DNA of 64,000 nt, taken from positions 25,720 through 89,719 of the IMG/VR virus record IMGVR_UViG_3300010885_053065. The stretch is one strand, 5' to 3'. The translations under genes were made by a program, and so were the position numbers. This DNA is from a virus. This document shows, piece after piece, positions 13,911-27,399 of the stretch. The notes beneath the pieces are model-generated. The model saw nothing but the letters and a program-made list of their open reading frames with translations. It ran no database searches and had not been told where the DNA came from. Numbering within the stretch: the first letter of the stretch is position 1; each line of letters opens with the position of its first letter.

Positions 13911-14621
13911 ATGACAAATTTAACACGATTCGACAAAGACGGAATCGAGATATTAATTGACACTCAGACAGGCGAAAGTTTTGCTAGTATTTCTGGTTAT
14001 GCACGGATGGCTAACATCTCAAAACAAGCTATATCTAAAAGATGTACCGTCAACCAATCAGTCCTTAAAACGGCTGAAATAGATACTACAAGCGGAATTA
14101 GAACCGTCAACCTAATTACAGAAGATACTATATGTGAATGGATAATTAAAGACAATCCATTTATGGCAAGTCAACTGCTTAAACTTGGAGTAAGAATGTT
14201 TCTTCATCAATTAGCAGGAATTGAAAAAGAATCTATTACACACACACCTCAATTAACAACAAAAGCAACAGCTATAGAATGGGGTAAGCATTGCCTATCA
14301 TTGGGGATACACAACGATGGTTATATTCACGAATTGCTTAAGCAGTTAACCATACAAGAATTATCTTTAGTTCAAAATACAAAGCAATTAACTTCTACTG
14401 TAGAACCAATTAAAGATGTTACTATTTGTACTGTGAGAGCTAATGAGCTTGGTTATACACCTCAACAGTATGGTAATGGAGCTGCTTTAGGAGCATTTGT
14501 TAAAAAAAGAATAACACCAGTTTTCAAAAAGCGTATAGGTCAATTTGCAACATGGCACTATGAAGTTAATAACGAACTAGATCATGCAATTCATCAATAC
14601 TTTAAACAGAAATCATGCTAA
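13911..14621 (+). CDS. Phage antirepressor-like DNA-binding protein
   Basis: RFDKDGIEILIDT.TGESFASISGYARM N-terminus; C-terminus resembles the Bro C-terminal regions in this window; AAGGAG RBS. Confidence 0.55.
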   Translation: MTNLTRFDKDGIEILIDTQTGESFASISGYARMANISKQAISKRCTVNQSVLKTAEIDTTSGIRTVNLITEDTICEWIIKDNPFMASQLLKLGVRMFLHQLAGIEKESITHTPQLTTKATAIEWGKHCLSLGIHNDGYIHELLKQLTIQELSLVQNTKQLTSTVEPIKDVTICTVRANELGYTPQQYGNGAALGAFVKKRITPVFKKRIGQFATWHYEVNNELDHAIHQYFKQKSC

Positions 14622-15040
14622 CTAAAAGAGAAGAAGTAGTAATTGAGGCTAGAAAGTGGCTTGGTACTCAGTGGAACCATGCTCAAAGCACTCAAGGTGT
14701 TCAGGTAGATTGCGTTAACTTTGTTTATGGAGTCGCTAAAGCTTGTGATATTGATTGTGGTAATTTACCTGAAGAATACCCAAGGTTAAGTGACGGCAAA
14801 GAGTTAATAAAGTATTTAGATACCTACTTTAAAGAGACTACTCTTGAAAACGCTAAAATAGGAGATATTCTAGTGTTTAAGTTCTTTGGTGTTCCTCACC
14901 ACCTAGGGATTCTAACTAACCTCTTAGGGTATCCAAGTGTCATACATTCCTCAGCAGAATTTATGAAAGTTGTAGAGCATATTTTAGATAGTAAGTATGT
15001 TAGAGTCTTATCAGGAGTATATAGTTTAGGTTATGAATAA
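14615..15040 (+). CDS. NlpC/P60 tail-associated peptidase
   Basis: EARKWLGT.W.H....G..VDC, GDILVF....PHHLGI, IHS. Confidence 0.9.
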   Translation: MLTKREEVVIEARKWLGTQWNHAQSTQGVQVDCVNFVYGVAKACDIDCGNLPEEYPRLSDGKELIKYLDTYFKETTLENAKIGDILVFKFFGVPHHLGILTNLLGYPSVIHSSAEFMKVVEHILDSKYVRVLSGVYSLGYE

Positions 15041-15386
15041 AATGTCTGATCAAGTTATACATATAAAAGTTCAAAGAGCTAATAAAGAAGACAAGATTTT
15101 GGTTGTATCAACAAAAGCAGATAATGATTTAGAGATAGAAAAAATTCCTTTTTCAGGTCGTCTTATTTCCGATGATCCTGATTATTGGTTAGATCATTTT
15201 TATTTTATTAAAGGACAAAACGTAGGCAATAATCTTGCACAAATAATTGAAAATAACAGAAATTGGATCAAGGAAATACAACAGTTAGAAGATTTAGATA
15301 ATAACTTGCATGGTGAGTCTTCTGAGTCATCATTTTGGTCGGAAATGGAAAATGGGGAAGAGAAGATTAAAAGGGTTAGTTTATGA
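15033..15386 (+). CDS. Hypothetical protein
   Basis: Overlaps both neighbours; shares a 15-bp start with the next gene. Confidence 0.55.
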   Translation: MNKMSDQVIHIKVQRANKEDKILVVSTKADNDLEIEKIPFSGRLISDDPDYWLDHFYFIKGQNVGNNLAQIIENNRNWIKEIQQLEDLDNNLHGESSESSFWSEMENGEEKIKRVSL

Positions 15387-15715
15387 ATAAAATGTTTTTA
15401 AGTAAGTTATTTAGTGTCAAAAAACTAGCAAATCTTGTTAAAAAAAGGCTGAAAAAAAGTAGAGAGATTATAGAAGAATCTAACGGAAGTGAAGGATATT
15501 GTGACACAGTGGTTATGTCAGATCCTGTACTCACTTCAATAACTGGATTATCAGAAGATAACAGATGTATTGGTTGTAGTTACTACTCAACTAACGGACT
15601 CTTACGCTGTGCGGTCAACCCTACACTAGCTGAAAATATTGGTGCGTACTCAATTAATAATTGTGTTGATTTCAAAAGAAGAGAATTTAAACCCTTTTTC
15701 ACTACGGTTAAATAA
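15383..15715 (+). CDS. Small Cys-rich protein
   Basis: C..C.YY....LRCAVNP....C.DF motif. Confidence 0.6.
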   Translation: MNKMFLSKLFSVKKLANLVKKRLKKSREIIEESNGSEGYCDTVVMSDPVLTSITGLSEDNRCIGCSYYSTNGLLRCAVNPTLAENIGAYSINNCVDFKRREFKPFFTTVK

Positions 15716-18444
15716 TGGCTGAGTCTTTAGTAATCTCGCTTGCTATAAGTACTGCTGTTGGCTTTATTGGTTCGTTACTTACTCCAAAGAAAAAGCCAAC
15801 ACTACCAGATATACCAGGTAGTCAATACGGAAAGACTTTAATTAGGGGTTTTGGTACCTTTGCTGTTGAGGGAAATATGATCTTTCCTGAAACTGCTAAC
15901 CAAGCTTTTAGGATTAGTAGAAGCCGTTCTAAAGGAGGTAAAGGGATACCTCAAAGTCAGTCAGAGAGAGTGTACGGTAAGTTCATGGCTGTGTTCTGTC
16001 AAGGTCAAACTACCTTTGATACTCTCTGGATAAATGGAGTTACTCATGGTGGTAACGGTAGTTACGACGGGTACATGACTCAGCAAGGGTTTGATTTTTT
16101 TGATGGCAGACCTTTGACTATTAACGGAGGTGCTCAACTGCCATGGTCAGATGCTCAAGCCATTAACGGAGCTAATAATACACCTGCTTATACTGGTTTA
16201 ACTTGTGCGGCTTTCTCTAATCTTGATTTAACCAAGTTAGGGAACACTTTCCCTACTCAGTTCAAGATGAAATTGGTAGATGTTGAACTTGGTGCAGAAC
16301 CATCTTTAGGTGCTGTTGTCAAGGCTATTTGTAAGTTATCAGGATTATCAGATAGTCAGGTTGACACTAGTGATCTTGCTGGATTTCAGATAGTTGGGTT
16401 CGTTATGGATCAATCTGGAGGTTCTTATAAGGATTCAATTAGTCAATTAGCGTCAGCATGGTTGTTTTATCACACTGAGTTACAGGATGGTACATTAGCC
16501 TTTAGATTCTTTGATAGGAGTTTTACGGGAGATAGCCCATTAATTATTCCTGCTGACGAATTAGGAGCTTATGACGGGGTTGAGAGCAATTTTCCTTTTA
16601 ATATTCGTAGAGATTTTATAGATCCACTAGAACTTCCCTCTAAGATATGGTTGACCTTTACTAACCCCAATATTGGTTTCTATAGAGATACGGTAGTAGG
16701 TGAAGCTCAGTGGGCTAAGCATAAAAATGAACTAAATATAGACTGTTCTAATTGCATCATGACAGCAGGACAGGCTATAACCCAAGTCAGCAGAATGATG
16801 CAACAGTTCTGGGTGCAAAGAAACAAGTTTAAGTTTACACTGCCTCCTGTCAGTCCTAGTAGTGGGTTTAAGTATATTAATCTATCAGTTGGTAACTTAC
16901 TAGAATTACCTACAGGTGAGGTGGTTCAGATTGAGAAGATTGATATAGGTCTCAATTATATAGTTGAGATAGTTGCACACGGATATGGTAAATCATCTTC
17001 TATTACTGCTGGATCAGGTTCTAGTTCAAGTGTCAGCCCTCCTAGAAGCAATTCAGAGTATACAGACAATATTCCTGTTGGATCAACTTCAAATAAGCTA
17101 ACAATACTCGACATTAATACAATATCTGATAGCGACTCAGAAAGAGGTGTTTATGTTACTGCCTCTGGCTCTAATGTCAATGTTCTAGTTTCTATCGATA
17201 ATGGTACTTCTTACTCAAAAGCTACAACCTTAACTACTCCTGGAATTGTTGTCAATAACGTAACAGGAACGCTAATTAGTTGGAGTGATACAACAGCAAC
17301 TGACACGACTAGTACTTTAACAATCCCTCAATCAGTAGGAACTATCTCAAGTATCACTAGTGGTCAAGCAGCTACTCTCACAGAGAATGTCGCTTTTGTT
17401 GGTTCTACTACAACCGTTAACGGCACTTCAGTCTATAGAGGGGAGATAGTTGTTTTTACTACTGTTACCGTCTCTGGCTCAAATTATGTTTTGAGTAACT
17501 TTACTAGAGGGGTTAGAGGAACAGAGTCTTATATGTCTACTCACGGCACCAATACAGACACTTTTGTCTTATTGAATGGTGTTGGTGCTAACGTTTCTAG
17601 AATCTCGATAGACGATCAATATATTGGAACTAATCTATATTTTCAGACAACTAATAATGACTGGCAAACCTCCTATTCAGATCCTTCTGCTACTCAATTT
17701 AGTTATCAGGCTATTGGCTTAAAGCCTTACCAACAGAAGAATATAGCGTTTAACTACGATTCTGCACAAAACATTGTTATCAGTTGGACTAAAGTCCCTA
17801 GAGGGATGGCATTAACAACAGGAGAGTTAATTGATTCTTATTCTCTAGATATCCTAAACAATAGTAATGCTGTTGTAAGAACCTTAACTAGTGCTTCTCC
17901 TGTAGCTATCTACTCCAAGGCTCAGCAGATAACCGACTTTGGTTCAGTCCAAACTAGCTTAAAAGTTAATTTATATAAAGTTTCTAGTATTGTTGGCAGA
18001 GGTTATGTAAGAAGTTTATCAACTACTGTAGCGAGTGCAGGTAGCAGTACTTCTATAGTAGGTGACACAAGTACAGATAGTTTTAAGGCTACTAAAACCA
18101 TTACAGCAAACTATACTGTTTTGACTACTGATAATGGTTATTGGATAGTTGTCAATAACGCAAGTCTTACAGGGAGTGTATCAATTACAATAACAGTTAG
18201 TAATGCGCTCCCATTAGGTTTTAGATGCTATTTTGTTAATCCTTTACCAGTATCTGGCAACAATGTTATTCTTACTTTTGTGTCTTCTACAAGTGAGCCA
18301 TTTTATACAACAAATACCCTAAAACCTGATTCAGTTGGCTTATTGTATTTTCATGGTTCAAGTTGGACTTTGAACTCAGGAAAAGCAGAGTCTGTAGGTG
18401 GTTCAGGATTCACTGATATAGAACAATTGAGATTTTTATTATGA
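15715..18444 (+). CDS. Central tail tip/host-specificity protein (GTA megatron-like)
   Basis: SQYG..L.R.FG...V.GNMI, PAYTGL, ELPS.I.LTF, RGVRGTE; follows the DUF2163 and NlpC genes. Confidence 0.85.
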   Translation: MAESLVISLAISTAVGFIGSLLTPKKKPTLPDIPGSQYGKTLIRGFGTFAVEGNMIFPETANQAFRISRSRSKGGKGIPQSQSERVYGKFMAVFCQGQTTFDTLWINGVTHGGNGSYDGYMTQQGFDFFDGRPLTINGGAQLPWSDAQAINGANNTPAYTGLTCAAFSNLDLTKLGNTFPTQFKMKLVDVELGAEPSLGAVVKAICKLSGLSDSQVDTSDLAGFQIVGFVMDQSGGSYKDSISQLASAWLFYHTELQDGTLAFRFFDRSFTGDSPLIIPADELGAYDGVESNFPFNIRRDFIDPLELPSKIWLTFTNPNIGFYRDTVVGEAQWAKHKNELNIDCSNCIMTAGQAITQVSRMMQQFWVQRNKFKFTLPPVSPSSGFKYINLSVGNLLELPTGEVVQIEKIDIGLNYIVEIVAHGYGKSSSITAGSGSSSSVSPPRSNSEYTDNIPVGSTSNKLTILDINTISDSDSERGVYVTASGSNVNVLVSIDNGTSYSKATTLTTPGIVVNNVTGTLISWSDTTATDTTSTLTIPQSVGTISSITSGQAATLTENVAFVGSTTTVNGTSVYRGEIVVFTTVTVSGSNYVLSNFTRGVRGTESYMSTHGTNTDTFVLLNGVGANVSRISIDDQYIGTNLYFQTTNNDWQTSYSDPSATQFSYQAIGLKPYQQKNIAFNYDSAQNIVISWTKVPRGMALTTGELIDSYSLDILNNSNAVVRTLTSASPVAIYSKAQQITDFGSVQTSLKVNLYKVSSIVGRGYVRSLSTTVASAGSSTSIVGDTSTDSFKATKTITANYTVLTTDNGYWIVVNNASLTGSVSITITVSNALPLGFRCYFVNPLPVSGNNVILTFVSSTSEPFYTTNTLKPDSVGLLYFHGSSWTLNSGKAESVGGSGFTDIEQLRFLL

Positions 18445-18770
18445 CGATCACATATACTCCAAAGACTAAAGCAGCAGTAGCAACTAGTTCTCTTACTACT
18501 ATCTATACTGTACCAAGTGACACTACAACTAGAGTAGAGAAAATTACTATTACAAATGGTGCAACAGCAGGTACAGTCACGCTTAAATTTTACGATGCAA
18601 GTGCTACCACATCTTATTTTTTAGCTTGTAACGCTTATCCAATAGCTGCTAACGCACTAAGGGAAATAGCGGGTGAGATACTAGAAACGGGCGATTATCT
18701 TCAAATTAGTGCAGCTACTACAACCGATCTGACTGTTAAACTGAACTACGTAGAGGCGGTTGTAAGCTAA
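18441..18770 (+). CDS. Small virion/tail-fibre-associated protein
   Basis: TTIYTVP...ILETGDYLQI; Thr/Ala-rich, coupled to tail genes. Confidence 0.65.
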   Translation: MTITYTPKTKAAVATSSLTTIYTVPSDTTTRVEKITITNGATAGTVTLKFYDASATTSYFLACNAYPIAANALREIAGEILETGDYLQISAATTTDLTVKLNYVEAVVS

Positions 18771-19546
18771 TGTTTTTAAGATCTCCTAGACCTGATTTAC
18801 TAGAGACTAGAGATAACTTTGGGATTGTGGCAAGTAGTTTAGGTGACAATAATTTAAAAAGCAATTTGCTAAGTTATTGGGATCTAACACCTGCCTCTAG
18901 TTATAATGATCTAACAAATAATGGTAGTAACTTAACGTTAATTAATTCTCCTAGTGGAGATAATACAAATGGTGTATTATTAAATGGTACTAATCAATAT
19001 TTATCGGTTGCTAGTAATTCGTATCTTCAATTTACTAGTAGCGATTTTACTATAGCTGGTTGGATCAATCCAACTTCTTTAGCTGCCAACGGAAGTTACA
19101 ATTTTATTGTTTGCCAAGACAATATTGGGGTTGGTAGAAATTGGGGGGTTATTTATGATCCGACTACTGCAGATACTAAATTAAATTTTCAAATTTTTAA
19201 CTCATCTGGATCAGCTTTCTCTGTTAAATCAAACTTTCAACCAACAATAAATAATTGGTATTTTTTAGTTGCAACACACTCTACCTCTGCAAAAAAAATT
19301 ACATTTATTGTTTTTGAAGGGTCTACCACTACACCTGTTTACGCAGGTGTAGTGACTTACACAGGAACTTTGGCAACAAATTCTTTACTAACTACTTTTG
19401 GTTGCGTTTTAATTTCTGGTAGTCCAAATTTTTATTTTAATGGTAGGTTAAAGCAATGGGGTATTTGGTCTAGAACATTAACAGGATCAGATATTCTGCA
19501 ACTGCATAATAGCGGTAATGGGTTATTTTTTTCTTCGCTAGATTAG
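18770..19546 (+). CDS. LamG/concanavalin A-like lectin domain protein
   Basis: LNGTNQYL, FTIAGWINP, WYFLVAT, FNGRL..WGIWSRTLT. Confidence 0.85.
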   Translation: MFLRSPRPDLLETRDNFGIVASSLGDNNLKSNLLSYWDLTPASSYNDLTNNGSNLTLINSPSGDNTNGVLLNGTNQYLSVASNSYLQFTSSDFTIAGWINPTSLAANGSYNFIVCQDNIGVGRNWGVIYDPTTADTKLNFQIFNSSGSAFSVKSNFQPTINNWYFLVATHSTSAKKITFIVFEGSTTTPVYAGVVTYTGTLATNSLLTTFGCVLISGSPNFYFNGRLKQWGIWSRTLTGSDILQLHNSGNGLFFSSLD

Positions 19547-19554
19547 AGTTAATA

Positions 19555-20241
19555 TTAATCAACATCTGATTGGTTGGATTGAGCAATATAAGAGATTAAC
19601 TCAAGAAATCTACCACCACGCTTAGTAGATATCAATTGCTCTGTTGAGTGAAAATCTAATACTGAGTAGAGTTTAAATAGATTCTGAGATTTGTAGACAC
19701 CTGATAGTATCTCTGTCTTAGTGCATCCAAGAGACATTAACAGTTCAAAATAACCTAAAAACTCTATTAGCTCTTGTCTATTTATAGTAAGTAGATTTAT
19801 CTCAAAAAGTACAGGAAATATTTCTCTACTATTAGCTTCTTTAGCTAAGAATAAAATATGCTTTTGTCCAGATTCAGCTATAGCAATAGTAAAAGGCGGT
19901 TCAGGAGGGTTAACAAGCCATTCTCTAATCTGTGGTCTTGTGGGTAAGTCGGTTACTCTATCACCTTCAATCTTAGGGTAAGACTCTTTCTCTGAAATTA
20001 ACCAAGACCAACAACGACCAAATAATAGTACTTCTTTTTGACTATGTGGATTATAGTATTTAAGTCTTAGAGGGATAACGTAATGACAACGATCACATAA
20101 CTTATCAGAGGTTGGAGACTTAGCTGAACTGTGAGCCGTGAAACTGTCTTTTAGTATTCCTTCTTTAGGTTTGGTGGCAGGAATTGAACCACAGAGATAG
20201 CATGAGTCTTTTATTTTAGTGTCACTAGTCACGTCACTCAC
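19555..20241 (-). CDS. csf1: Type IV CRISPR Cas8-like Csf1
   Basis: CYLCG...KDSFT.H...LCDRC zinc finger; PPEPPF.IAIAESGQKHILF; both candidate GTG starts (20241, 20232) lie in repeat 1. Confidence 0.8.
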   Translation of the reverse strand: MSDVTSDTKIKDSCYLCGSIPATKPKEGILKDSFTAHSSAKSPTSDKLCDRCHYVIPLRLKYYNPHSQKEVLLFGRCWSWLISEKESYPKIEGDRVTDLPTRPQIREWLVNPPEPPFTIAIAESGQKHILFLAKEANSREIFPVLFEINLLTINRQELIEFLGYFELLMSLGCTKTEILSGVYKSQNLFKLYSVLDFHSTEQLISTKRGGRFLELISYIAQSNQSDVD

Positions 20242-20815
20242 CTTGGCTTTGGTAATAGTTCTCTTGGAGAGTTGGGAGATTTGTGTGCTATGTCACTAAA
20301 CACGACACTTGCCTTGGCTTTGGTAATACTAAAATTGTGAACTGCATAAAGAGAAGTGACATCCTCAAAAATGATTTTCTCTTTAATTTTGAGATCTTCT
20401 AGGCTATCGTAATCTACAGGCTCTCCATCTTCGGTGAGCAAGAATATATCCTGAGCGCCTATTCTGAGTGCATAAACTACATCAGGACGACTAGGCAGTG
20501 AGACGCTGTAAAGGGTATATTGTCCCATACTAATAAGGCTTAAAACAGCATCTGGGAGTTTACTGAGACGACTTTTTGGGATGGACGAAGTGGTGATCAT
20601 GGCTCTATCCTCTCTTTATTAGCTAATCTCAAAGTTGTAACAGATTACCAACTTGTTACCAAAAGATGATGGTGGCTAAAGTGAAGTAAATGGGTATTAA
20701 TGGTTAACTAAGCATTATGCTCAATTTATGGATTACATTCTACCTACAATCTAGCTCACTAAAAATATTTATTTCTGGTCACTAAACGCGTCACTTACCT
20801 TGGCTTTAGCAGTAG
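20221..20815 (-). CRISPR. Putative degenerate mini-array: three 38-bp repeats (20221-20258, 20292-20329, 20778-20815), one 33-nt spacer and one 448-bp interval
   Basis: Pairwise identity 31-32/38; plus-strand consensus GTCACTAAACACGTCACTTACCTTGGCTTTGGTAATAG with a TTACC/GGTAA stem; lies between cas6 and csf1. Orientation is assumed from the operon. Confidence 0.55.
20238..20600 (-). CDS. Hypothetical protein starting between repeats 3 and 2 and reading through repeat 2, the spacer and part of repeat 1
   Basis: GAGAGGATAGAGCC-ATG RBS; last ~30 aa are translated repeat/spacer. Confidence 0.5.
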   Translation of the reverse strand: MITTSSIPKSRLSKLPDAVLSLISMGQYTLYSVSLPSRPDVVYALRIGAQDIFLLTEDGEPVDYDSLEDLKIKEKIIFEDVTSLYAVHNFSITKAKASVVFSDIAHKSPNSPRELLPKPR

Positions 20816-20827
20816 CCTGTCTTTAGT

Positions 20828-21088
20828 TCAAGAGTAGATCAATTCAGCTATTCGTTTTTCCTCAGCCAGAAATTTTAATAAGTTATCGGGAAGCGGAACA
20901 GCTTGTAACTCAATCCAGTACAAACAATGTCTTGGCGCAAATTCTATATCACGATCTGTAGAAGATCCTACGGGAAAGCCATTCATGTCTAAATATCTCA
21001 ACACATCAAACAACTCCTCTTTGTCTTTTGTCCTAAATATCAACTTTGAAGAATTGCGAGGTGACTGCAAATATATTTCATACATCAT
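20828..21088 (-). CDS. Hypothetical protein
   Basis: AAGG RBS; ends 12 bp before repeat 3. Confidence 0.55.
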   Translation of the reverse strand: MMYEIYLQSPRNSSKLIFRTKDKEELFDVLRYLDMNGFPVGSSTDRDIEFAPRHCLYWIELQAVPLPDNLLKFLAEEKRIAELIYS

Positions 21089-21090
21089 TT

Positions 21091-21390
21091 TTACCTTAAT
21101 AGATGATAAACTTTATTGTTACACAACAAAAAACTTTTACCTATTTTCTCCAAACCTTTATTTAATATGTTGATTGCTGCATTTTGATCCCTATCTAAAA
21201 CACATTGACAGTGTGGGCATTGATGCAGTCTTACACTTAAAAGTTTTGGCACTTTTTCACCGCAACTTGAGCAATTCTGAGAAGTGTTGTGGGGGTTAAC
21301 TTCTATTACTTGAACTCCAAACTTAGAAGCTATTTCCTTTAGTCTTAAAACAAAATAACCCCATGCTGCATTAGAAATAGCTTTAGAAGG
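21091..21390 (-). pseudogene. tnpB: TnpB C-terminal remnant (not in the ORF track)
   Basis: Manual translation SKAISNAAWGYF...VNPHNTSQNCSSCG...HQCPHC..LDRDQNAAINIL; no upstream start in frame. Confidence 0.85.
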
Positions 21391-21512
21391 ATTTTCACAG
21401 TAAATTTTTGCATAACAGGATCGGTAGAGCCAAAACTTTTTTCATATGACACTCCGATAGTTTTTATTAGCGAGAAATCAAAAAGCCTAGAGTAATCTAG
21501 GCTGATAGTGTG

Positions 21513-21578
21513 GTTTAGTATTCCTTCTTTAGATTTGGTGGCAGGAATCGAACCACAAAGATAGCAAGAGTCTTTCAC
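21513..21578 (-). pseudogene. Duplicated 5' end of csf1
   Basis: GTG-KDSCYLCGSIPATKSKEGIL nearly identical in DNA to ~20149-20211, then diverges. Confidence 0.8.
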
Positions 21579-21592
21579 GCAATCTACAAATA

Positions 21593-21952
21593 TTATTTAA
21601 GTTTTTTCTCTATTGTAGTGGTGATGGTCTGATTGATAATCATAAGCTCTTTCTTGTTTTCGGTAATAGTTATAGTATGTTTGGTATCTTCTCTTACAGA
21701 ATTTACTTCTGTATCATCTCTATTGGTATTAATAACTTTTTTAGAATAATCTACATCATACTCAATTCTTTTTATGTTGCATGTTTTAGGTTGTAAATTA
21801 CAACTGGGTTGAATACTGGTAGAGCATCTATTTAAATTTGATATTTTGCAAGCTGGCGTGTTTTTAAGAGTCTCAAGATCTTCTGCTAGCACACTATTTG
21901 TATTTACTTCTAATGCAATAAAAAGTAATAAAATAAACAATGAAATACGCAT
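21593..21952 (-). CDS. Secreted Cys-containing hypothetical protein
   Basis: N-terminal signal peptide MRISLFILLLFIAL...VLA. Confidence 0.55.
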   Translation of the reverse strand: MRISLFILLLFIALEVNTNSVLAEDLETLKNTPACKISNLNRCSTSIQPSCNLQPKTCNIKRIEYDVDYSKKVINTNRDDTEVNSVREDTKHTITITENKKELMIINQTITTTIEKKLK

Positions 21953-22070
21953 AAGTTAAACCCCTGTTTCTTTATGATTTATTAATATTTTAACAACAAA
22001 ATATAGTTTTCTGTATACACTTTTCATTGTTTTAAGATATTCTCGTTTTATATTTAATAGTTCCGATAAT

Positions 22071-22655
22071 TTAAACAAACACTCCACAACCTAACTTGTG
22101 TTTACCGCCAATACCTGACACTTGAAGCTTAATAGAATCTTCTTTACTTAAGTTAAATGCTTTAGCTTTAAACCCTACTACAGTATAATTCCTCTCACTT
22201 CTTGGGATGCGTATTGTCAGTCTTTCTAATACTTCAATATCTGCTTTAATCTCTAACTTATCTAGTTGTTTATCTGCTGCTATTTTAAATAGCTCTGGAG
22301 TGACAGCATTCTTGATTACAACCAATCTAGCTATTAACTCTGTTTTACCTTCTAGCATCCTATATAAAGGGTTTCCTAGCCTTATTTGGTAGCGCATTAT
22401 CTTAAGGTTAGAGTCTTTAAGTTTAGTAAATAACTTGGCGTTATCTATAGTTGTTCTGATTAACAAAGTAGATTTATCTGTTAATTTAATCTCTCCATTG
22501 TTGTTAGGGAGTCCAGTTATTGTGTTAATAAAAACTTCCTCTAGACTATGGAGTTCTTGTATTTTTGAACACAAAGCAGAGTATAGATAATAATTATGGT
22601 CAGCATAGAGAGACTGACCATAAACAGGGAATAGAATATCAACAAATTGAGACAA
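22071..22655 (-). CDS. cas6: CRISPR endoribonuclease Cas6, MYXAN/I-B type
   Basis: VDILFPV.G..L.ADHNY.LYSAL N-terminus; S..LQ..GIGGKHKLGCGVF glycine loop. Confidence 0.9.
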   Translation of the reverse strand: MSQFVDILFPVYGQSLYADHNYYLYSALCSKIQELHSLEEVFINTITGLPNNNGEIKLTDKSTLLIRTTIDNAKLFTKLKDSNLKIMRYQIRLGNPLYRMLEGKTELIARLVVIKNAVTPELFKIAADKQLDKLEIKADIEVLERLTIRIPRSERNYTVVGFKAKAFNLSKEDSIKLQVSGIGGKHKLGCGVFV

Positions 22656-22674
22656 GTTAAATTAATTTCTCCAG

Positions 22675-23442
22675 TTACTGTAGAGACAAACTAACCAAGT
22701 TAAGTTTGTCTCTAGTCTCGTTCAAATCTTTTTCTATGTAATCTGAGACTGGAAAATCACTAAAAATATCAACAGAGTTTACTCCTATATTCCAAGCTTT
22801 AACAATGCGCTCAGTTTTAAAATAATCAACTCCTTGTGCTTCTAAAAATATCTGTAGTTGCTCCAACAATAGAATAGGAGGATTGCAGCGATTTATCATT
22901 CCTTCTTCAAAAGCAATTATTTCTAGTTCTCCTTGTACTGTAGTAGGAACATCTAGTAATATATGGTGAAAATCATGAACCAAGATATAGCTAGACGGAA
23001 ACATTGATGGTTTATCTACTGTTGCTACGTTTCCATTATTTTGATAATACTGGTGTAGAGCATATCCTACTGTTCCCTTCTTACAAAAAGGAAGTTTTTT
23101 AAAAAGTTTTATATTTTCTGGGTTAGGAGTTAATGATTCTAAGAAATAGCTTTTGAGTCCAATTAATTTATCTTTTAAAGACATAAAAGGCAATATTTTT
23201 GGCATTGTTTGTGTCCTTAAAGTACAAGTTGGTCTTACGTATTCAAACCTTATTCGGCTAAAGATCTGCCATAAATTAGCAGAAGTAACACCTAGTAAAT
23301 TAACTGGTGTCAGTAAACTTACTACATCGATTTCTGGTTTAACTAATTTAATAATTTCTTCTCTATTTTCTGCTTGAATAATTCGATTAAATAGATTATT
23401 ATCGGTCAAAACTTGTTCAAGAAAATTAAGTTCAACAGTCAT
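22675..23442 (-). CDS. Coq4-like metal-binding protein
   Basis: GTVGYAL..YY and HDFHHIL..VPTT.QGELEI.AF (HDxxH-x11-E). Confidence 0.6.
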   Translation of the reverse strand: MTVELNFLEQVLTDNNLFNRIIQAENREEIIKLVKPEIDVVSLLTPVNLLGVTSANLWQIFSRIRFEYVRPTCTLRTQTMPKILPFMSLKDKLIGLKSYFLESLTPNPENIKLFKKLPFCKKGTVGYALHQYYQNNGNVATVDKPSMFPSSYILVHDFHHILLDVPTTVQGELEIIAFEEGMINRCNPPILLLEQLQIFLEAQGVDYFKTERIVKAWNIGVNSVDIFSDFPVSDYIEKDLNETRDKLNLVSLSLQ

Positions 23443-24163
23443 AAAATGCCTCAGTTACATTCTGTTTTAAATATGAGTATAACATAGGATTAAATCGCTT
23501 CATGTTCTCTAAAGAGGTTTTCTGTAAGGATTTGTTTTTGTTAGCAGAATACCAATAATTAGCATGAGCATTGGTTCTACTTGTTTTACGGTCTAATTTG
23601 TCATACAAGTCCAAGTAAGGAATATCATAATAAAAAAGATAAGCCCAAACATCCTGCCATGACCACCATGCAAGAGGACATACTCTATAGTATCCTTTAT
23701 GTTTTCCTGTTTGGTATTGATGAATTAACCCGTATTTTTTTAGAGATCTTCTTCTATTAATACTTTCTTCTGCTCTTAGCCCAACAAAAGCCACACTGTA
23801 ATCAACTACTGCATTTATCCTGTCTTGGACTGTATCAGAAGTAGCAGCATTCTCTTTTTGAGCTTTAATATCTAAATACTTAGTTGGAAATTTCTCACAA
23901 TACCTAGAGATTGTTTCCGAGTAATTAGAAACATAATCTTGCTCTATTGAGCTATAACAAACTGCAGCAATATCAGGTTTAATTTGTTGGCAAAGGTGCA
24001 ACATTACGGTTGAATCTTTGCCCCAACTAATAGCTACATAAGAGTCACCAATCTCTAGAGCTTCAGAAATTATTTGCTTGGATTTCTCTACTCTTTTTTT
24101 AAAGCTATCTAGTAGCGCATAACCTCTATAGGCTTGATATTCTGGATCATCTTTTAAAAGCAA
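23432..24163 (-). CDS. cysH: CysH/PAPS-reductase-like protein of type IV-B loci
   Basis: SWGKDS PP-loop, VGLRAEES..RR, CPLAWWSWQDVWAY. Confidence 0.85.
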   Translation of the reverse strand: MLLKDDPEYQAYRGYALLDSFKKRVEKSKQIISEALEIGDSYVAISWGKDSTVMLHLCQQIKPDIAAVCYSSIEQDYVSNYSETISRYCEKFPTKYLDIKAQKENAATSDTVQDRINAVVDYSVAFVGLRAEESINRRRSLKKYGLIHQYQTGKHKGYYRVCPLAWWSWQDVWAYLFYYDIPYLDLYDKLDRKTSRTNAHANYWYSANKNKSLQKTSLENMKRFNPMLYSYLKQNVTEAFYDC

Positions 24164-24166
24164 CTG

Positions 24167-24865
24167 TCAATTAGCATTGGTTTTTAACCTAGGCTTCTCC
24201 TTAATCTGTCTTACATTGTCTTTTGGTATATAACACAGTACTTGATTCTGATGCATCCATGATGGTGTTTTCCAAGCCACAACCATCATGTCATGCACCT
24301 CTAAATCTAGTTGCTGTGCCATCTCTAAAGGAATTGGTCTTGTGACACGTCTTTCTTTCTCAAACGACCAGTCATAGTCAATTTCTTTAACTGACCACTC
24401 AGAGACATAAGCAAAGCCGTAGGATCTCTTTTTCCCTAAGTGAGTAACTGTAGATAGAGCTAACTTTATCTGCTCTTTATCTCCTACTACAAACCAGTCA
24501 ATCCTTTCAGTAAGCTTCAAGAATAGAGGTAGATCATAAGACTTGAATTGACCATCTGAGCCAGAAAACTTAGCCTTCTTCTTACCCCAATCAAGATGCT
24601 CACTTTGATAATCCCACCGTTTTCTATATCTATCAGTACTCTCTATAGAGTATAAGTAGTGAGGACTAGAAGCTTGATAGAAACCTAGTTCATGCTTTTT
24701 AATTGGTAACTCAATCTCAGTTAAAGTCTCAAAGGTTACGTTAGTGTCAAGTCTACCAGTTGATTCTCTAACTGAGTACTCTATTATCCCTGTGATATCA
24801 GGAGAAAGATTGTCTGTTACAGCAATAGGTCTAGCTAGATTAGCTGTTATTTGTAAAGGAATCAT
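24167..24865 (-). CDS. csf3: Type IV CRISPR Cas5-group Csf3
   Basis: PLQITANL..PI, WF.VGD...I, HLGKKRSYGF..V..W.V, RPIP. Confidence 0.85.
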   Translation of the reverse strand: MIPLQITANLARPIAVTDNLSPDITGIIEYSVRESTGRLDTNVTFETLTEIELPIKKHELGFYQASSPHYLYSIESTDRYRKRWDYQSEHLDWGKKKAKFSGSDGQFKSYDLPLFLKLTERIDWFVVGDKEQIKLALSTVTHLGKKRSYGFAYVSEWSVKEIDYDWSFEKERRVTRPIPLEMAQQLDLEVHDMMVVAWKTPSWMHQNQVLCYIPKDNVRQIKEKPRLKTNAN

Positions 24866-25425
24866 GGCTTACTTAAATCCAATTGATTACAAAGTTTATC
24901 TATTACCAAGTGATAAACAGTACCACTAGAGCCAGACTCATGTGTGTTAATTAATAGTTCAACTAAAGCAAAAAAACTTAAAGGTCCTTGAAGCGTTACG
25001 TCCAACTGCAAAGAAGAAATAACATTTTTTATCTTCTCAGCAAGAACGTTTAGTAGACACTTTTTAATCGAGATTCTTGATGGCTCAAAAAGATGTACTG
25101 ATAGATAAATATAGGCAGCAACTAGGTCAATTAGTGAGTGTTCTTCTGACTCAATATCAGTTGCTTCTGTTGTGGATAATACTGATTCAATTGTTGTCAT
25201 TTCTACCTGATTAATTATTTCTATTTGTTGTGATTCTTCTATTTTATCAATTGTCTCTTCTTGCTCAGTAATCCCAATACCGTGCTCATTTAGATATTTC
25301 AAATACCAATTACGCATCGTTTTAGGAGGAACCAAAGGGAAATCTTTATAAAGTCTTCTAGGTTGACTTCCATTTCTAAACCTATTTAATATCTCTGACT
25401 TGTACTTGTCTCCTCTACTAGCCAT
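24862..25425 (-). CDS. Putative HTH regulator between csf2 and csf3
   Basis: N-terminal EILNRF..G..PRRLYKDFP.VP.KTMRNW HTH-like segment; translationally coupled on both sides. Confidence 0.5.
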   Translation of the reverse strand: MASRGDKYKSEILNRFRNGSQPRRLYKDFPLVPPKTMRNWYLKYLNEHGIGITEQEETIDKIEESQQIEIINQVEMTTIESVLSTTEATDIESEEHSLIDLVAAYIYLSVHLFEPSRISIKKCLLNVLAEKIKNVISSLQLDVTLQGPLSFFALVELLINTHESGSSGTVYHLVIDKLCNQLDLSKP

Positions 25426-26588
25426 TATCCAAATACTCCCTTGATTTCACTGTTATTACTTTTAATAAACTCTCGATAATCAGCCAGATAAGATTTATAT
25501 CTCTCTTGCTGTAGACTAGCTCTACTTTCTAATACTTGATGTCCATCTTTAATTGATATCCAACTACCTGCTTCTTCTCCACTAGAGTAATAAATCTCTA
25601 CAGCAACTCTACCGAAACCTGTATTACTCATCCCTCCTAAATAAGGATTCTCTGCCCAATTGCTAATAGCATCAGCTATAAACCCTTCCTCAATATCAGT
25701 AACGTTAGCATCCCACCGAGAGTAGAGTTTTGCTCCTTGCTGTATTAACCATGCACCCATAATCATTTGATTAGACTTTTGTTTCTCTTCTTTTTTCTCT
25801 GTACTATCTCCAAATAAAGATTGTTGTCCTTCTTTAGATGCAGCAGGCAATAAGTACTTAACAAGAGAAGGATCATGGTGTGAGTCCATTCTTACCTTTT
25901 GGTTATAGGTTAACCAGTGTGGGTAAGGTCTGAGAATCTCTTGTAGGTAGGGTAGCCAATACTTTAGAGTTTCTTTGTAGCTAGTATCGTCTAGCGTCTG
26001 TTCTCTCTTAAAGAGGAAATTAGAGACTCTTGTTTCCTCTAAATCTTTTTTAGCTTGAGAGATAGCTTTTAACCCCTCTAAAGCAGCTGCAGGTAAAGCA
26101 GGTTGAAATATTTGAAACTGATTTAAGGCTGACTCGTAACAAATAAGCATTGCATCGCCAACATTAATCCGACCTGGAATCATTTGAGCATCTTTACCAC
26201 CAAAGACTCCTTTAGGTTTAGCTGTTCCTAGTACTGATATAGGAGGTAAAAACTGTCTTATCTTTTTATCAAGCTCTAGATCATTAGCTGTACCACCATC
26301 AATTGCACCACCACAGAACAAAGTATGATGCAAGATTGGAGATACCTGTATCCCTAGTTCACTTAAGAAAGAATCGACTCCTACACGTCTTAATATTCTG
26401 TTCCTTAGTGCGTTACCTGAGAGACAAAATACTTGGCTAGGATTGCCTTCTATATCGGTTATAGCTAGAGTTTTGAGGTTAGCTTGATTGCCTACTGATT
26501 CTCCAATATGGGATAGAGGTGACAAAGTTTCTATTACTAAGTGAAAAGTAATTCTGTGGCGTTGGTTCGGGTTGTAATTATTTGGCAT
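25425..26588 (-). CDS. csf2: Type IV CRISPR Cas7-group Csf2
   Basis: TLSPLSHIGE, LSGNALR..ILRR, LFCGGA, ISVLG, GRINVG, QMI, LGGMS.TGFGRV. Confidence 0.9.
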   Translation of the reverse strand: MPNNYNPNQRHRITFHLVIETLSPLSHIGESVGNQANLKTLAITDIEGNPSQVFCLSGNALRNRILRRVGVDSFLSELGIQVSPILHHTLFCGGAIDGGTANDLELDKKIRQFLPPISVLGTAKPKGVFGGKDAQMIPGRINVGDAMLICYESALNQFQIFQPALPAAALEGLKAISQAKKDLEETRVSNFLFKREQTLDDTSYKETLKYWLPYLQEILRPYPHWLTYNQKVRMDSHHDPSLVKYLLPAASKEGQQSLFGDSTEKKEEKQKSNQMIMGAWLIQQGAKLYSRWDANVTDIEEGFIADAISNWAENPYLGGMSNTGFGRVAVEIYYSSGEEAGSWISIKDGHQVLESRASLQQERYKSYLADYREFIKSNNSEIKGVFG

Positions 26589-26897
26589 TTAACTATTAAT
26601 TATCTCCTCTTCATCTGGATAAACCTTTGTGGTCTTTTCACTTACGTAATAAATTTCAAGATTTGGACAAAGAGACAATATTTTGTCTGACTCTTCTTGT
26701 CGTCTTTGTTTTTCATACTCAATCATTTTATCTATTAACAATTCTTCATCTTTTTCTTGATGAGCGTCTACAAGGAACTTAGCTACTTTATCTAAATTTC
26801 TACTTATTTCATTGGGATTATTACAATCAATAGACTCTACAAACAATCGTCCTGCATCATCTGGAGTCAACTTCTCTATCGCCTTTTTAGACATCAA
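26589..26897 (-). CDS. Hypothetical acidic protein
   Basis: Coupled ORF between the cas11-like gene and csf2. Confidence 0.5.
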   Translation of the reverse strand: MMSKKAIEKLTPDDAGRLFVESIDCNNPNEISRNLDKVAKFLVDAHQEKDEELLIDKMIEYEKQRRQEESDKILSLCPNLEIYYVSEKTTKVYPDEEEIINS

Positions 26898-27399
26898 TTA
26901 CATCCTCATCTTCTTGTTTATTGAGCCATAAAGCTTTATCTTCTTCATGTTTTAAGCGAACATATAAAGCGACAATTTGTGACTTTTCTAGACACTGTCT
27001 TAATACGGCTCTATCGGTTATTCCAAACTGAATAGACCACCGTTTTATTATATCTTCCCAAGATTCCCACACTAAAGACTGATCTGAGTCAATCTGTTGT
27101 ATTTCTCCTACATTTCCATCCTCAGCTTTAGCTGCTCTTAAAATTACTTGTTGAGGTTGAACTAATCTAGTCCACTCTTTAGGTTTAAGTGTTGGAACAA
27201 CCAATCTTTTAGAGAGATAGTGAATATAGTCGTTTAAGTTTCTAGAGGGAATAGCAGCATTTTCTATTGATGTTTGAACATACTCCCAAGTCTTAATTCC
27301 GTTAGCAGGAGAACGTTGTTTGTCACGGCATCTAAATACCCAATAAGTTAAGGCGCTAGCTAAAGCTATTGGTTTGTCTTCTGTATTAATTCCTAACAA
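26887..27399 (-). CDS. Putative type IV-B small subunit (Cas11-like)
   Basis: Helical 170-aa protein just upstream of csf2; W..V...IENAA...L.DY...L...L and IVALYVRLKHEEDK; mainly positional inference. Confidence 0.55.
   Translation of the reverse strand: MLGINTEDKPIALASALTYWVFRCRDKQRSPANGIKTWEYVQTSIENAAIPSRNLNDYIHYLSKRLVVPTLKPKEWTRLVQPQQVILRAAKAEDGNVGEIQQIDSDQSLVWESWEDIIKRWSIQFGITDRAVLRQCLEKSQIVALYVRLKHEEDKALWLNKQEDEDVIDV

Follow-up and report, generated by a model that had tools for sequence, protein, structure and literature searches.

The phage genome considered here, a complete record of 89.7 kb from a virus of cyanobacteria, carries a cryptic mini-array of three degenerate repeats and one spacer inside a type IV-B-like operon, and we suggest, with about even confidence, that this unit is what decay has left of another TnpB-derived (type V-U-like) cassette, the second in this phage. 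Comparison of the repeats supports the assignment of the mini-array to the phage's own TnpB-derived (type V-like) repeat family, and not to the adjacent Cas6 and type IV genes. What is new here is the resemblance of the single spacer to cyanobacterial nblB; the spacer is probably a piece of that host gene. The window referred to below is the whole stretch of DNA analysed, 64,000 nucleotides that form part of the record, and the features on which the argument depends are the following.

19555-20241, minus strand: csf1, full-length; the right copy of a duplication makes up its 5' segment (about 20152-20211)
20221-20256, minus strand: R1, the terminal repeat, which holds the csf1 start codons and the ORF120 stop
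20257-20291, minus strand: the 35-nt spacer, whose plus strand reads as the cyanobacterial nblB sense strand at the SSLGELGD site
20292-20327, minus strand: R2, the mini-array repeat nearest to the main-array repeat (28/36), beginning exactly at ORF120 codon 92
20328-20600, minus strand: codons 1-91 of ORF120, its conserved part; ORF120 is small, has no family match and lies between R3 and R2
20778-20813, minus strand: R3, a more diverged repeat, 14 nt past the ORF86 stop and outside any ORF
20828-21088, minus strand: ORF86, of no family and with no homologue in 52 related loci
21094-21399, minus strand: C-terminal remnant of a TnpB/Cas12f-like gene (PF07282, 3e-19), the rest of the gene being deleted
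21484-21503, minus strand: hairpin followed by a T-run at the left insertion edge, resembling a terminator or an IS200/IS605 left-end hairpin
21516-21578, minus strand: left copy of the csf1 5' end, with the ancestral GTG start and about 20 codons, cut off by the insertion
22071-22655, minus strand: cas6, of the Cmx6/I-MYXAN family, the RNA-processing gene nearest the mini-array
22675-27399, minus strand: the rest of the type IV-B-like operon, with genes for a Coq4-like protein, a cysH-like protein, csf3, a 187-aa ORF, csf2, a 102-aa ORF and cas11

A repeat search of the window returned three direct 38-nt copies, at 20220-20257, 20291-20328 and 20777-20814 on the plus strand, with start-to-start distances of 71 and 486 nt. 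Relative to the first copy, the second is 87% identical (33/38, where the initial annotation had counted 32/38) and the third 79%; between the repeats of the phage's main array 35-36 of 36 positions agree. The repeats are real: a 30-nt degenerate pattern allowing up to 3 mismatches matched R1, R2 and R3 only, both in the window and over the whole 89,719-bp record, and matched in 0 of 100 dinucleotide-preserving shuffles. The repeat unit was set at 36 nt by the main array, which places R1, R2 and a 35-nt spacer as listed above, and the 33-nt spacer originally given holds with the 38-nt copies. The generic layout of a CRISPR array is thus present, with R2 and R1, of 36 nt each, on either side of the spacer and a third copy 450 nt upstream. 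Each of the repeats, when read on the minus strand that also carries the TnpB remnant and the cas genes, has ...AGTGAC as its end. They have no conserved hairpin: in both orientations their folds are no more stable than those of shuffled sequences (z -1.10 to +1.13), and the TTACC/GGTAA stem once ascribed to the consensus of all three copies forms in R2 (plus strand) and R1 (minus strand) only, in neither R3 nor the main-array repeat. TRF and Rfam searches reported nothing at the mini-array. The phage is present in two freshwater metagenomes. Contigs of two DNA sequencing runs carry the identical sequence, the second run being without cover over 20206-20473; the runs listed with this stretch include no RNA run, and no promoter-like site was found on the minus strand between 21480 and 20241.

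The main array, 29 kb from the mini-array and 8.5 kb before the start of the window, consists of five 36-nt repeats with spacers of 38, 27, 40 and 35 nt. R2 is the sole other match to its repeat in the genome, on either strand, at up to 9 substitutions, and of the 8 positions out of 36 that differ, two lie in the 3' tail beside the spacer. Global alignment to the main-array repeat gave z scores against shuffles of 7.3 for R2, 6.0 for R1 and 5.2 for R3. This homology to a genuine array of the same phage supports the initial annotation in taking the mini-array for a CRISPR-type unit, and speaks against a coding repeat or a chance match. The gene that adjoins the main array on its upstream side encodes a 467-aa effector with profile matches to Cas12f (1.6e-44) and Cas12u2 (2e-43), and has kept the acidic residues D228, E315 and D414, which are invariant across 20 aligned homologues and which we take to be the RuvC triad. 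The anti-repeat of the main cassette pairs with the main repeat at 24 of 28 positions, the next best on that genome strand reaching 18/28, and the duplex is predicted at -30.3 kcal/mol where shuffles average -10.5. R2, on the minus strand, also has this anti-repeat as its best partner genome-wide, in the same register as the main repeat, with 20/28 Watson-Crick pairs (runner-up 17/28) and -19.3 kcal/mol (shuffle mean -8.7, minimum -13.4). R1 and R3 reach -12.8 and -17.4 kcal/mol with it, values that are no better, or just marginally better, than those of shuffles.

Set beside what characterizes a type V-U locus, the mini-array has a repeat homologous to that of an array next to a TnpB-like effector, has only a C-terminal remnant of about 100 aa in the place of an intact, adjacent and co-directional TnpB-like gene, and has no anti-repeat within the cassette, the best local pairing being 14-17/28, which is background. 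The remnant retains the zinc-finger cysteines and the last RuvC motif, and precedes the repeats on their own strand, as the effector gene does in the main cassette. Over 62 aa it shares only 40% identity with the intact effector, and the two cassettes are therefore not recent copies of each other. The degenerate repeat pattern had no match in IMG/VR and two in metagenome contigs, both of them chance matches inside unrelated coding sequence; the mini-array repeat was found in none of 80 loci with TnpB homologues; and a sample of 401 cyanobacterial genomes showed no array built on it, the matches to the repeat part being short (about 17-30 nt) and spread over different genomes. Matches of the main array to cyanobacterial genomes were mostly chance, the recurrent one placing the 3' part of the repeat on a conserved GHSFGNLF-coding motif. 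The effector has no relatives in IMG/VR, and its closest relative in GenBank phages is 33% identical. Because the repeat family was found nowhere else, comparison lends support neither to decay nor to function.

The mini-array sits in a 1.3-kb insertion that splits csf1, with which the operon ends, at its 5' end, and a duplication of that 5' end (73 nt at 89%) flanks the insertion. The left copy starts as the genes of relatives do, and the right copy reads ATA at the ancestral start position. In all 19 relatives read, csf1 starts 2-5 codons before the motif CYLC, or CFLC in a single case; the phage csf1 has no in-frame start codons other than the GTGs at 20241-20239 and 20232-20230, both inside R1, and R1 also supplies the Shine-Dalgarno-like AAGGTGA. 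Where operon genes occur in the flanks of csf1 homologues, csf1 follows cysH or coq4 by about 10-150 nt in most loci and lies within about 1-2 kb of one of them in a few. A tblastn search with ORF120, ORF86 and ORF119 against 52 csf1-homologue loci gave no match. Judged from these comparisons, the 1.3-kb segment is a late insertion that the relatives lack. ORF120 stops inside R1 (stop codon 20240-20238), and its homology to its only relative, P0121, which a 2,386-bp JGI contig encodes, ends exactly at the first base of R2, codon 92; a search of IMG/VR gave no relatives of it.

A link between the mini-array and the local Cas6 was not supported by our comparisons, in spite of the position of the unit between cas6 and csf1. 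The operon genes themselves match the NCBIfam Csf models below the cut-offs only. When aligned with nine cyanobacterial arrays that lie beside Cas6 homologues (a tenth region, L175, was left out), the mini-array repeats gave mean z scores of -0.2 to 1.9, with a maximum of 3.2 and no preferred orientation, and the likeness to I-B/MYXAN repeat ends that had been suggested for them thus proved no better than that of shuffles. No copy of the repeat at up to 10 substitutions was found near csf1 homologues in any of the 52 phage loci, which is one half of what the initial annotation had named as its own refutation, the other half being no processing by the local Cas6. A cas6 match is carried by 9 of the 52 loci, none with an array within the flanks examined, and six repeat types from arrays of related phages were sought in this phage and found absent at up to 12 substitutions. 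Genes of the Cas12u2 type, together with arrays, adjoin csf1 in 11 of the 52 loci.

The spacer matches nblB in frame at one site. Against 13 nblB orthologues it agrees at 25-29 of 35 positions, and the orthologues agree among themselves at 25-35 (median 28), while the 15-nt flanks of the spacer agree with the flanks of the same 13 genes at 3-7 of 15 positions only. The similarity therefore spans the whole spacer, is confined to it, and falls on one orthologous site of a named gene, which is identified as NblB by model NF045915 (343-344 bits, cut-off 300). No perfect or near-perfect nblB protospacer was found in about 720-800 genomes, where the top match was 29/35; the BLAST E value is about 2e-4 per genome and, with that many genomes searched, the match taken alone is borderline. 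Among 40 NblB relatives, 23 of them motif-matched, none of the 23 has the exact spacer peptide, and the best shares 10 of 11 residues. Searches of the phage itself, the 52 related loci and GenBank phages gave no nblB gene, so the target of any guide would be the host chromosome.

Other sources for the spacer were sought without success. The BLAST search that had been proposed for it was fruitful for cyanobacterial genomes, as described, and not for GenBank phages, where the lowest E was 0.2, on unrelated hosts; for the mini-array region and the main array together, every phage match had E >= 0.1, again on unrelated hosts. The spacer has no copy elsewhere in the phage genome, its first 20 nt matching at best 14/20 and at scattered places, in agreement with the earlier statement that the window holds no protospacer. 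A partial promoter match in the unit's own locus, which had been thought worth looking for, was not seen beyond chance. Exact 22-mers of this spacer and of spacer 3 of the main array had no match in IMG/VR, and the 35 nt that follow R3 gave two weak, unrelated matches in 20 genomes.

We propose that a cassette composed of a left-end hairpin, a TnpB gene, small genes and three repeats inserted into csf1 at the 5' end and now has a copy of the first 60-70 bp of that gene on either side; around the main cassette, too, the start of the following gene is present twice (56 nt at 96%). Most of the TnpB gene would have been deleted afterwards, and the repeats would have drifted to their present 79-87% likeness. 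Because these arrays are without Cas1 and Cas2 and their spacer lengths vary, we infer that the spacer was not gained by normal adaptation but came in through recombination or as DNA that flanked a previous insertion. At present the clearest role of the unit would be structural, with R1 giving csf1 its start codon and ribosome-binding sequence, and with R2, the spacer and R1 forming a foreign tail of ORF120. The cassette has presumably lost autonomous function, and any guide function would require the intact Cas12-like gene and the tracrRNA 29 kb away; the Cas12-like effector of the phage may still make residual use of the unit in trans. Several observations sit awkwardly with this account. 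The occurrence of homologous repeats beside such different TnpB genes is left unexplained by it, the canonical 35-nt spacing and the unbroken nblB codon string could mean that the unit is maintained, and no promoter was recognized ahead of it. The strand is likewise a matter of likelihood. In known tracrRNA-dependent type V systems the anti-repeat pairs with the repeat part next to the spacer, and it is on the plus strand, not on the minus strand that we favour, that the anti-repeat would pair with the 28 nt beside the spacer.

The closest known layout to the main cassette is the phage-borne locus of CL131 (vB_AphaS-CL131, MG209611), which infects filamentous cyanobacteria; it is described as V-U2, with a 466-aa TnpB separated by 255 nt from an array whose repeats measure 36 nt and whose spacers, one of which partially matches a cyanobacterial chromosomal gene, range from 26 to 45 nt; its authors found no tracrRNA (PMC6293099). 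We verified this layout in record MG209611. In both loci a TnpB-like gene of about 466 aa is followed in the same direction by an array with 36-nt repeats and uneven spacers, and cas1 and cas2 are lacking. However, the CL131 protein is only 29% identical to the phage effector, the repeats of the two show no significant similarity (z 0.8 to 2.2), and the best candidate for an anti-repeat in CL131 pairs at 18/28, against 24/28 in the main cassette. The mini-array, which would be a worn copy of such a layout, differs further in its lost effector, its one spacer and its place inside a type IV operon. There is also a likeness to the omega RNA scaffold of IS200/IS605 TnpB, in which a conserved block ends in ...GTCAC before unrelated flank, as the phage repeats end in ...GTGAC before the spacer. 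In related cyanobacterial TnpB elements the guide starts just past this ...GTCAC. Either GTCAC or GTGAC occurs within 120 nt past the TnpB stop in 55 of 73 TnpB-homologue loci (counted from the listing), with the flanks diverging thereafter, and the main anti-repeat/repeat duplex with its 8-nt tail mirrors the IS200/IS605 terminal hairpin with its 10-nt tail. Unlike that scaffold, the end of the phage scaffold is repeated with spacers, and the main cassette splits the tracr-like part from the repeats. No array was found beside the TnpB gene in 5 loci read of the 15 flagged among the 80.

Whether the mini-array still works as a guide is the alternative that we take most seriously, although we regard it as a minority possibility. 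According to it, an R2-spacer guide, with the tracrRNA supplied in trans, would aim the Cas12-like protein at host nblB and cut or block that gene during infection. The choice by R2 of the main-cassette anti-repeat as its best partner, the retention by the effector of its invariant acidic residues, and a match to nblB as high as the orthologues' mutual range, with flanks that are unlike, all speak for such a guide. Yet R2 has departed from the main repeat at 8 positions, R1 and R3 pair near shuffle level, the best nblB match is no more than 29/35, and neither promoter nor RNA evidence was found. A broader form of the same idea appears slightly less probable again: here the guide against nblB would act through the Cas12-like effector in trans or through a nuclease-free Csf complex with Cas6, with the corollary that such arrays gain spacers by flank capture or recombination. 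That the mini-array is instead the crRNA source of the type IV-B-like system, with Cas6 cutting the repeats and the Csf complex silencing its target without cutting, as in type IV-A, we consider unlikely. The unit does lie within the operon, the phage offers no other candidate Cas6 substrate among the six repeat types sought, and a host-gene-like spacer would suit a complex that only binds; in type IV-A, a spacer that targets pilN of the host is described as lowering transcription of that gene (PMC11656645). Against this, the repeats are unlike those of the Cas6-adjacent arrays and are absent from every csf1-homologue locus, the cas6-bearing loci show no array within the flanks examined, the segment appears to be a late arrival, and the repeats, which have no conserved hairpin, are homologous to those of an array with its own TnpB-type effector and anti-repeat. 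Moreover, subtype IV-B is described as without arrays and carried by mobile elements (PMC11656645), and a survey saw no excess of repeat-like sequences in type IV loci (PMC10120712). The phage operon resembles subtype IV-B, which has no Cas6, in having cas11, csf2, csf3, a cysH-like gene and csf1 on a mobile element, but adds a Cmx6-family Cas6, a Coq4-like protein and a mini-array of another repeat family.

[quoted passage not shown] A regulatory or decoy RNA, be it a CreR/CreA-type mini-array or an RNA anti-CRISPR that mimics host repeats to soak up host Cas proteins, is nevertheless quite improbable to us. The spacer lacks the partial match to the phage genome or to a promoter, beyond chance, that the former would call for; the inserted cassette that contains the unit is of a different CRISPR type; and no array with its repeat was seen in the sampled cyanobacterial genomes or in IMG/VR, which counts against mimicry only so far as the host is represented there. 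Viral mini-arrays are described with one or two spacers, repeats identical to those of host arrays and spacers against related viruses (PMC11656645, PMC10120712); ours is a one-spacer array carried by a virus as well, but its repeats match the virus's own array and no host array seen here, and its spacer, for which the GenBank phage and IMG/VR searches gave no viral match, resembles a host gene. Hardly any weight, finally, goes to the view that the unit is not an RNA element but a repeated peptide-coding segment or an array-like duplication scar. R2 and the spacer do lie within ORF120, R1 takes in the stop of ORF120 as well as the start of csf1, and all three copies are open in one shared frame. 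The frames in use differ, however, with R2 read as ITKAKA... in ORF120, R1 as LLPKPR-stop in ORF120 and also as the csf1 start, and R3 outside any ORF; the homology of ORF120 breaks off where R2 begins, and the repeats are homologous to those of a non-coding array.

Type V-U2 and subtype IV-B, two CRISPR relatives without known function, occur together in this one complete phage genome, with a worn V-U-type array embedded in the type IV operon. An interplay between the two becomes testable; Cas12u2-type genes with arrays adjoin csf1 in related phages too, at 11 of the 52 loci. Spacer gain without Cas1 and Cas2 likewise becomes testable, with uneven spacers, a host-gene fragment and whole genes between repeats as hints; capture of flanks or recombination at the repeat would explain both the uneven spacer lengths and the whole genes between repeats in the two cassettes. 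The spacer also makes the targets of V-U-type guides testable, for it indicates a host gene by name, nblB, the gene for a phycobilisome degradation protein; cyanophages are known to carry nblA genes, which belong to the same pathway. If the guide works, the phage would control the breakdown of the host's light-harvesting antenna through RNA-guided cutting or silencing of a chromosomal gene. If the unit is a relic only, it would still record how a TnpB-derived CRISPR cassette decays step by step and how one of its repeats is reused as the translation start of a gene.

Three direct copies of a 38-nt unit lie on the plus strand, at 20220-20257 (the reference), 20291-20328 (87%) and 20777-20814 (79%), and the first two, 71 nt apart from start to start, make up a repeat-spacer-repeat unit. 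With up to 3 mismatches allowed, a degenerate 30-nt pattern found only these copies in the window and in the whole record, and none of 100 shuffles matched it; the repeats around a spacer described in the initial annotation are therefore real, and the label "mini-CRISPR" is correct. The spacer measures 33 nt with the boundaries used there and 35 nt (20257-20291) with 36-nt repeats, namely R1 (20221-20256), R2 (20292-20327) and R3 (20778-20813). The TTACC/GGTAA stem proposed along with them does not hold up, as it is not conserved across the copies and no copy's fold beats its shuffles. A reading as coding repeats was rejected, since the copies are read in different frames and R3 is covered by no ORF: in the frame of ORF120, a small ORF between cas6 and csf1, R2 reads ITKAKA... 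and R1 ...LLPKPR-stop, and in another frame R1 supplies the csf1 start. We conclude that the mini-array is a degenerate array of the TnpB-derived (V-U-like) kind, lying within a type IV-B-like operon of the phage.

The 89,719-bp IMG/VR record has direct terminal repeats and is rated complete; the window covers its bases 25720-89719. The operon occupies the minus strand around the mini-array; PADLOC type IV models match csf1, csf3 and csf2 at 2e-25 to 5e-43, and matches to NCBIfam Csf models fall below their cut-offs only.

Features of the operon and of the segment between cas6 and csf1
26887-27399, minus strand, cas11 (PADLOC type IV model, 5e-13)
25425-26588, minus strand, csf2 (PADLOC type IV model)
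24167-24865, minus strand, csf3 (PADLOC type IV model)
23432-24163, minus strand, cysH-like PAPS-reductase gene
22675-23442, minus strand, Coq4-like gene
22071-22655, minus strand, cas6 of the Cmx6/I-MYXAN family (Cmx6 model, above its cut-off)
21503-21578, minus strand, partial copy of the csf1 5' end (62-73 nt, 89% identical to 20139-20211)
21503-21484, minus strand, hairpin with a T-run
about 21399-21094, minus strand, C-terminal remnant of a TnpB/Cas12f-like gene
19555-20241, minus strand, csf1 (PADLOC type IV model)

From cas6 to csf1 the minus-strand order is a 119-aa ORF (ORF119), the csf1 5' copy, the hairpin, the TnpB remnant, ORF86, R3, ORF120, R2, the spacer and R1. The cas operon is preceded upstream by a gene with a Bro-N domain (27796-28515), and on the other side of csf1 (13911-19546) there is a series of plus-strand ORFs, including one for a 909-aa protein; these may be tail-like. 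Short contigs in a second freshwater metagenome (run X2, another study) match 19000-23000 with no differing letters over the covered parts, so the phage or a close strain is not confined to the source sample.

The repeats of the mini-array belong with the phage's own main array. Scanning k-mers over the full record turned this array up outside the window, at genome positions 17193-17512, with five repeats of 36 nt, of which four are identical and the fifth differs by one change, and spacers of 38, 27, 40 and 35 nt. R2 is identical to the main repeat at 28 of 36 positions and is the only other place in the genome, on either strand, within 9 substitutions of it; global alignment to the main repeat gave z-scores against shuffles of 7.3 for R2, 6.0 for R1 and 5.2 for R3. 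The main array lies downstream of, and on the same strand as, a 467-aa effector gene matching Cas12f (1.6e-44), Cas12u2 (2e-43), Pfam OrfB_IS605 and a Cas12f1-like TNB domain. An anti-repeat between gene and array matches the repeat by pairing at 24/28 positions (next best on that genome strand, 18), and the duplex energy is -30.3 kcal/mol (shuffle mean, -10.5). This main cassette (genome 17193-19184; 5194-7185 in the local coordinates of its stretch, L056) is a complete minimal type V-U2-like locus.

The mini-array cassette is laid out alike, its repeats following a co-directional TnpB-type gene of which a remnant is left, and a duplicated start of the next gene brackets both cassettes (73 nt at the mini-array; 56 nt, 96%, at the main array). 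Both also carry, in array orientation, a small gene between two repeats whose 3' end enters the next repeat (L056 4873-5229; window 20292-20813). In the main cassette this is a DUF433 gene with a partial repeat (20/24) across its stop codon, and in the other it is ORF120, which sits between R3 and R2. The single relative of ORF120 among 5.8 billion clustered proteins, P0121 (99 aa, 88% identical), stays homologous up to residue 91, exactly at the edge of R2. Since the remnant and the intact effector share only 40% identity over 62 aa, the two cassettes are anciently related rather than recently copied. The 3' part of the main repeat (L056 5207-5229) resembles GHSFGNLF, a conserved coding motif of a widespread cyanobacterial gene, and therefore produces recurrent false BLAST matches, which calls for caution in spacer searches.

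The initial annotation had instead tied the array to the local Cas6, with repeat ends recalling I-B/MYXAN. Of 301 cyanobacterial genomes sampled, 33 encode a homologue of the phage Cas6; ten such regions were fetched and repeats taken from arrays in nine. L175 was left out, as its first two clusters resemble plain tandem repeats rich in G. The nine Cas6-adjacent arrays have repeats of one family, and the phage repeats do not resemble it significantly (mean z -0.2 to 1.9, maximum 3.2, no preferred orientation). Nor was the conservation near homologous csf1 genes seen: the mini-array repeat is absent from all 52 csf1-homologue loci of related phages, nine of which (L005-L008, L024-L028) have a cas6 match and none of these nine an array inside the fetched flanks. 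Six repeat types copied from arrays of related phages are also absent from this genome. The Cas6/MYXAN type IV reading is thus unsupported, and host arrays are one possibility for what these Cas6 proteins cut. The arrays found in csf1-homologue loci accompany Cas12u2-type genes. A TnpB/Cas12u2-like gene lies inside the fetched flanks of 11 of the 52 (L004, L029-L031, L033-L037, L039, L040), in several of which CRISPR arrays adjoin it; two of these genes, scanned with the Cas12u2 model, gave matches of about 3e-166 and 3e-165. In L037 a mini-array of two repeats separates the csf1 stop from the stop of a convergent Cas12u2 gene.

More than 1,600 effector homologues were found at E <=1e-10 among 8,000 candidates scored; the best among the matches listed are 52-59% identical, and those with names carry the annotation TnpB and come from filamentous cyanobacteria. 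None of 80 genomic loci with effector homologues contains the repeat when up to 11 substitutions are allowed; 15 of these have repeat clusters, and in five that were read no CRISPR array stood beside the TnpB gene. By a count made by eye, GTCAC or GTGAC occurs within 120 nt past the TnpB stop in 55 of 73 loci with enough flank, and ATCAC or TTCAC at that position in about a dozen more; beyond it the flanks are unrelated. In IS200/IS605 elements the guide of the TnpB RNA starts at the right end of the element, and the conserved GTCAC-ended block is that right end. On the minus strand the repeats end, directly ahead of the spacer, in ...TAGGTGAC (main array) and ...TAGTGAC (R1-R3), and the anti-repeat/repeat duplex with its 8-nt tail mirrors the terminal hairpin and 10-nt tail of IS200/IS605 TnpB elements. 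Because of these repeat ends and this likeness we moderately favour the minus strand over the plus strand.

The mini-array has no effector or anti-repeat of its own (best local pairing 14-17/28), its repeats have diverged, and a search upstream of it on the minus strand gave no promoter-like site; we therefore interpret it as a cassette in decay. It may retain some use in trans. The best minus-strand partner of R2 in the genome is the main-cassette anti-repeat (20/28), with a duplex of -19.3 kcal/mol (shuffle minimum, -13.4), and the effector retains three acidic residues invariant in 20 homologues; R1 and R3 pair with the anti-repeat no better, or marginally better, than shuffles.

The decay would have left one repeat with a new role, the last being taken over as the csf1 translation start. 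In the 52 loci the operon order is cas11-csf2-csf3-(cas6)-cysH-(coq4)-csf1, with csf1 directly next in most and after 1-2 kb in a few, and ORF119, ORF86 and ORF120 have no tblastn match in any of them; the segment between cas6 and csf1 is thus an insertion. In 19 of 19 relatives read, csf1 starts 2-5 codons before a CYLC motif (CFLC in one). So does the truncated copy on the left (GTG-K-D-S-CYLC); the right, full-length copy has ATA at the ancestral start codon, and its only upstream in-frame starts are two GTGs within R1, the second preceded at six bases by AAGGTGA. The two copies (21516-21578 and 20152-20214) differ at 4 of 62 positions, and since three differences are synonymous they suggest, in small numbers, two diverged alleles joined by recombination and not duplication in place. 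Ahead of the truncated copy is a promoter-like site (TTATCA, 16 nt, TACAAT; 21612-21639, minus strand), and the hairpin directly follows the copy, so that a stub of 21 codons may be all that the old csf1 promoter still drives.

The spacer has no second copy and no above-chance partial match in the phage genome, and IMG/VR contains no exact copy of its first 22 nt. BLAST gave no significant match to it in GenBank phages. With the mini-array stretch as query against 401 cyanobacterial genomes, matches recurred on the spacer part, in one gene. Its product is a 218-233-aa HEAT-repeat protein scoring 343-344 bits against the NCBIfam equivalog NblB (phycobilisome degradation protein; cut-off 300). 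Further searches of the best-match genome's order (301 and 401 genomes, two samples that largely coincide) and family (20) returned the same site, at best 28/32 aligned or 29/35 ungapped.

With E about 2e-4 per genome, and so of the order of 0.1 over roughly 720-800 distinct genomes, the match taken alone is borderline. Compared with 13 nblB orthologues, which are the best matches rather than random picks, the spacer agrees at 25-29 of 35 positions, and the orthologues agree among themselves at 25-35 (median 28). The likeness is sharply bounded, the 15-nt flanks on each side matching the repeat flanks at 3-7 positions, and the plus strand of the spacer reads in frame with nblB (SSLGELGDLCA against SSLGELGDLRA). 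Four of the six mismatches to the best match are at third codon positions (hypergeometric p about 0.06, our own arithmetic). The match, its reading frame, its sharp limits and its position at one orthologous site together make it probable that the spacer derives from an nblB gene. The exact peptide occurs in none of 23 motif-matching NblB relatives (of 40 returned), the nearest sharing 10 of 11 residues; no nblB gene was found in the phage, the 52 related loci or GenBank phages. In a search linking nblB to cyanophages or CRISPR, the term nblB was absent among the literature matches listed.

The nearest published case is cyanophage vB_AphaS-CL131, whose TnpB is assigned to V-U2, with 36-nt repeats and ten spacers of 26-45 nt, one partly matching a cyanobacterial gene, as given in excerpts of its description (PMC6293099). 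Its record has the layout of the main cassette here, a protein 29% identical to the effector and an unrelated repeat. In the excerpted text of a 2024 review, subtype IV-B is without arrays and its function not known, a type IV-A spacer against host pilN reduces pilN transcription, and viral mini-arrays target mostly related viruses (PMC11656645); excerpts of another study report regulatory mini-arrays as common in types I, III and V-A, and no enrichment of repeat-like sequences at type IV loci (PMC10120712). Type IV-B-like and V-U2 modules are a recurrent pairing in these phages. The present case is a V-U-like array inside a type IV-B-like operon, its spacer probably derived from host nblB.
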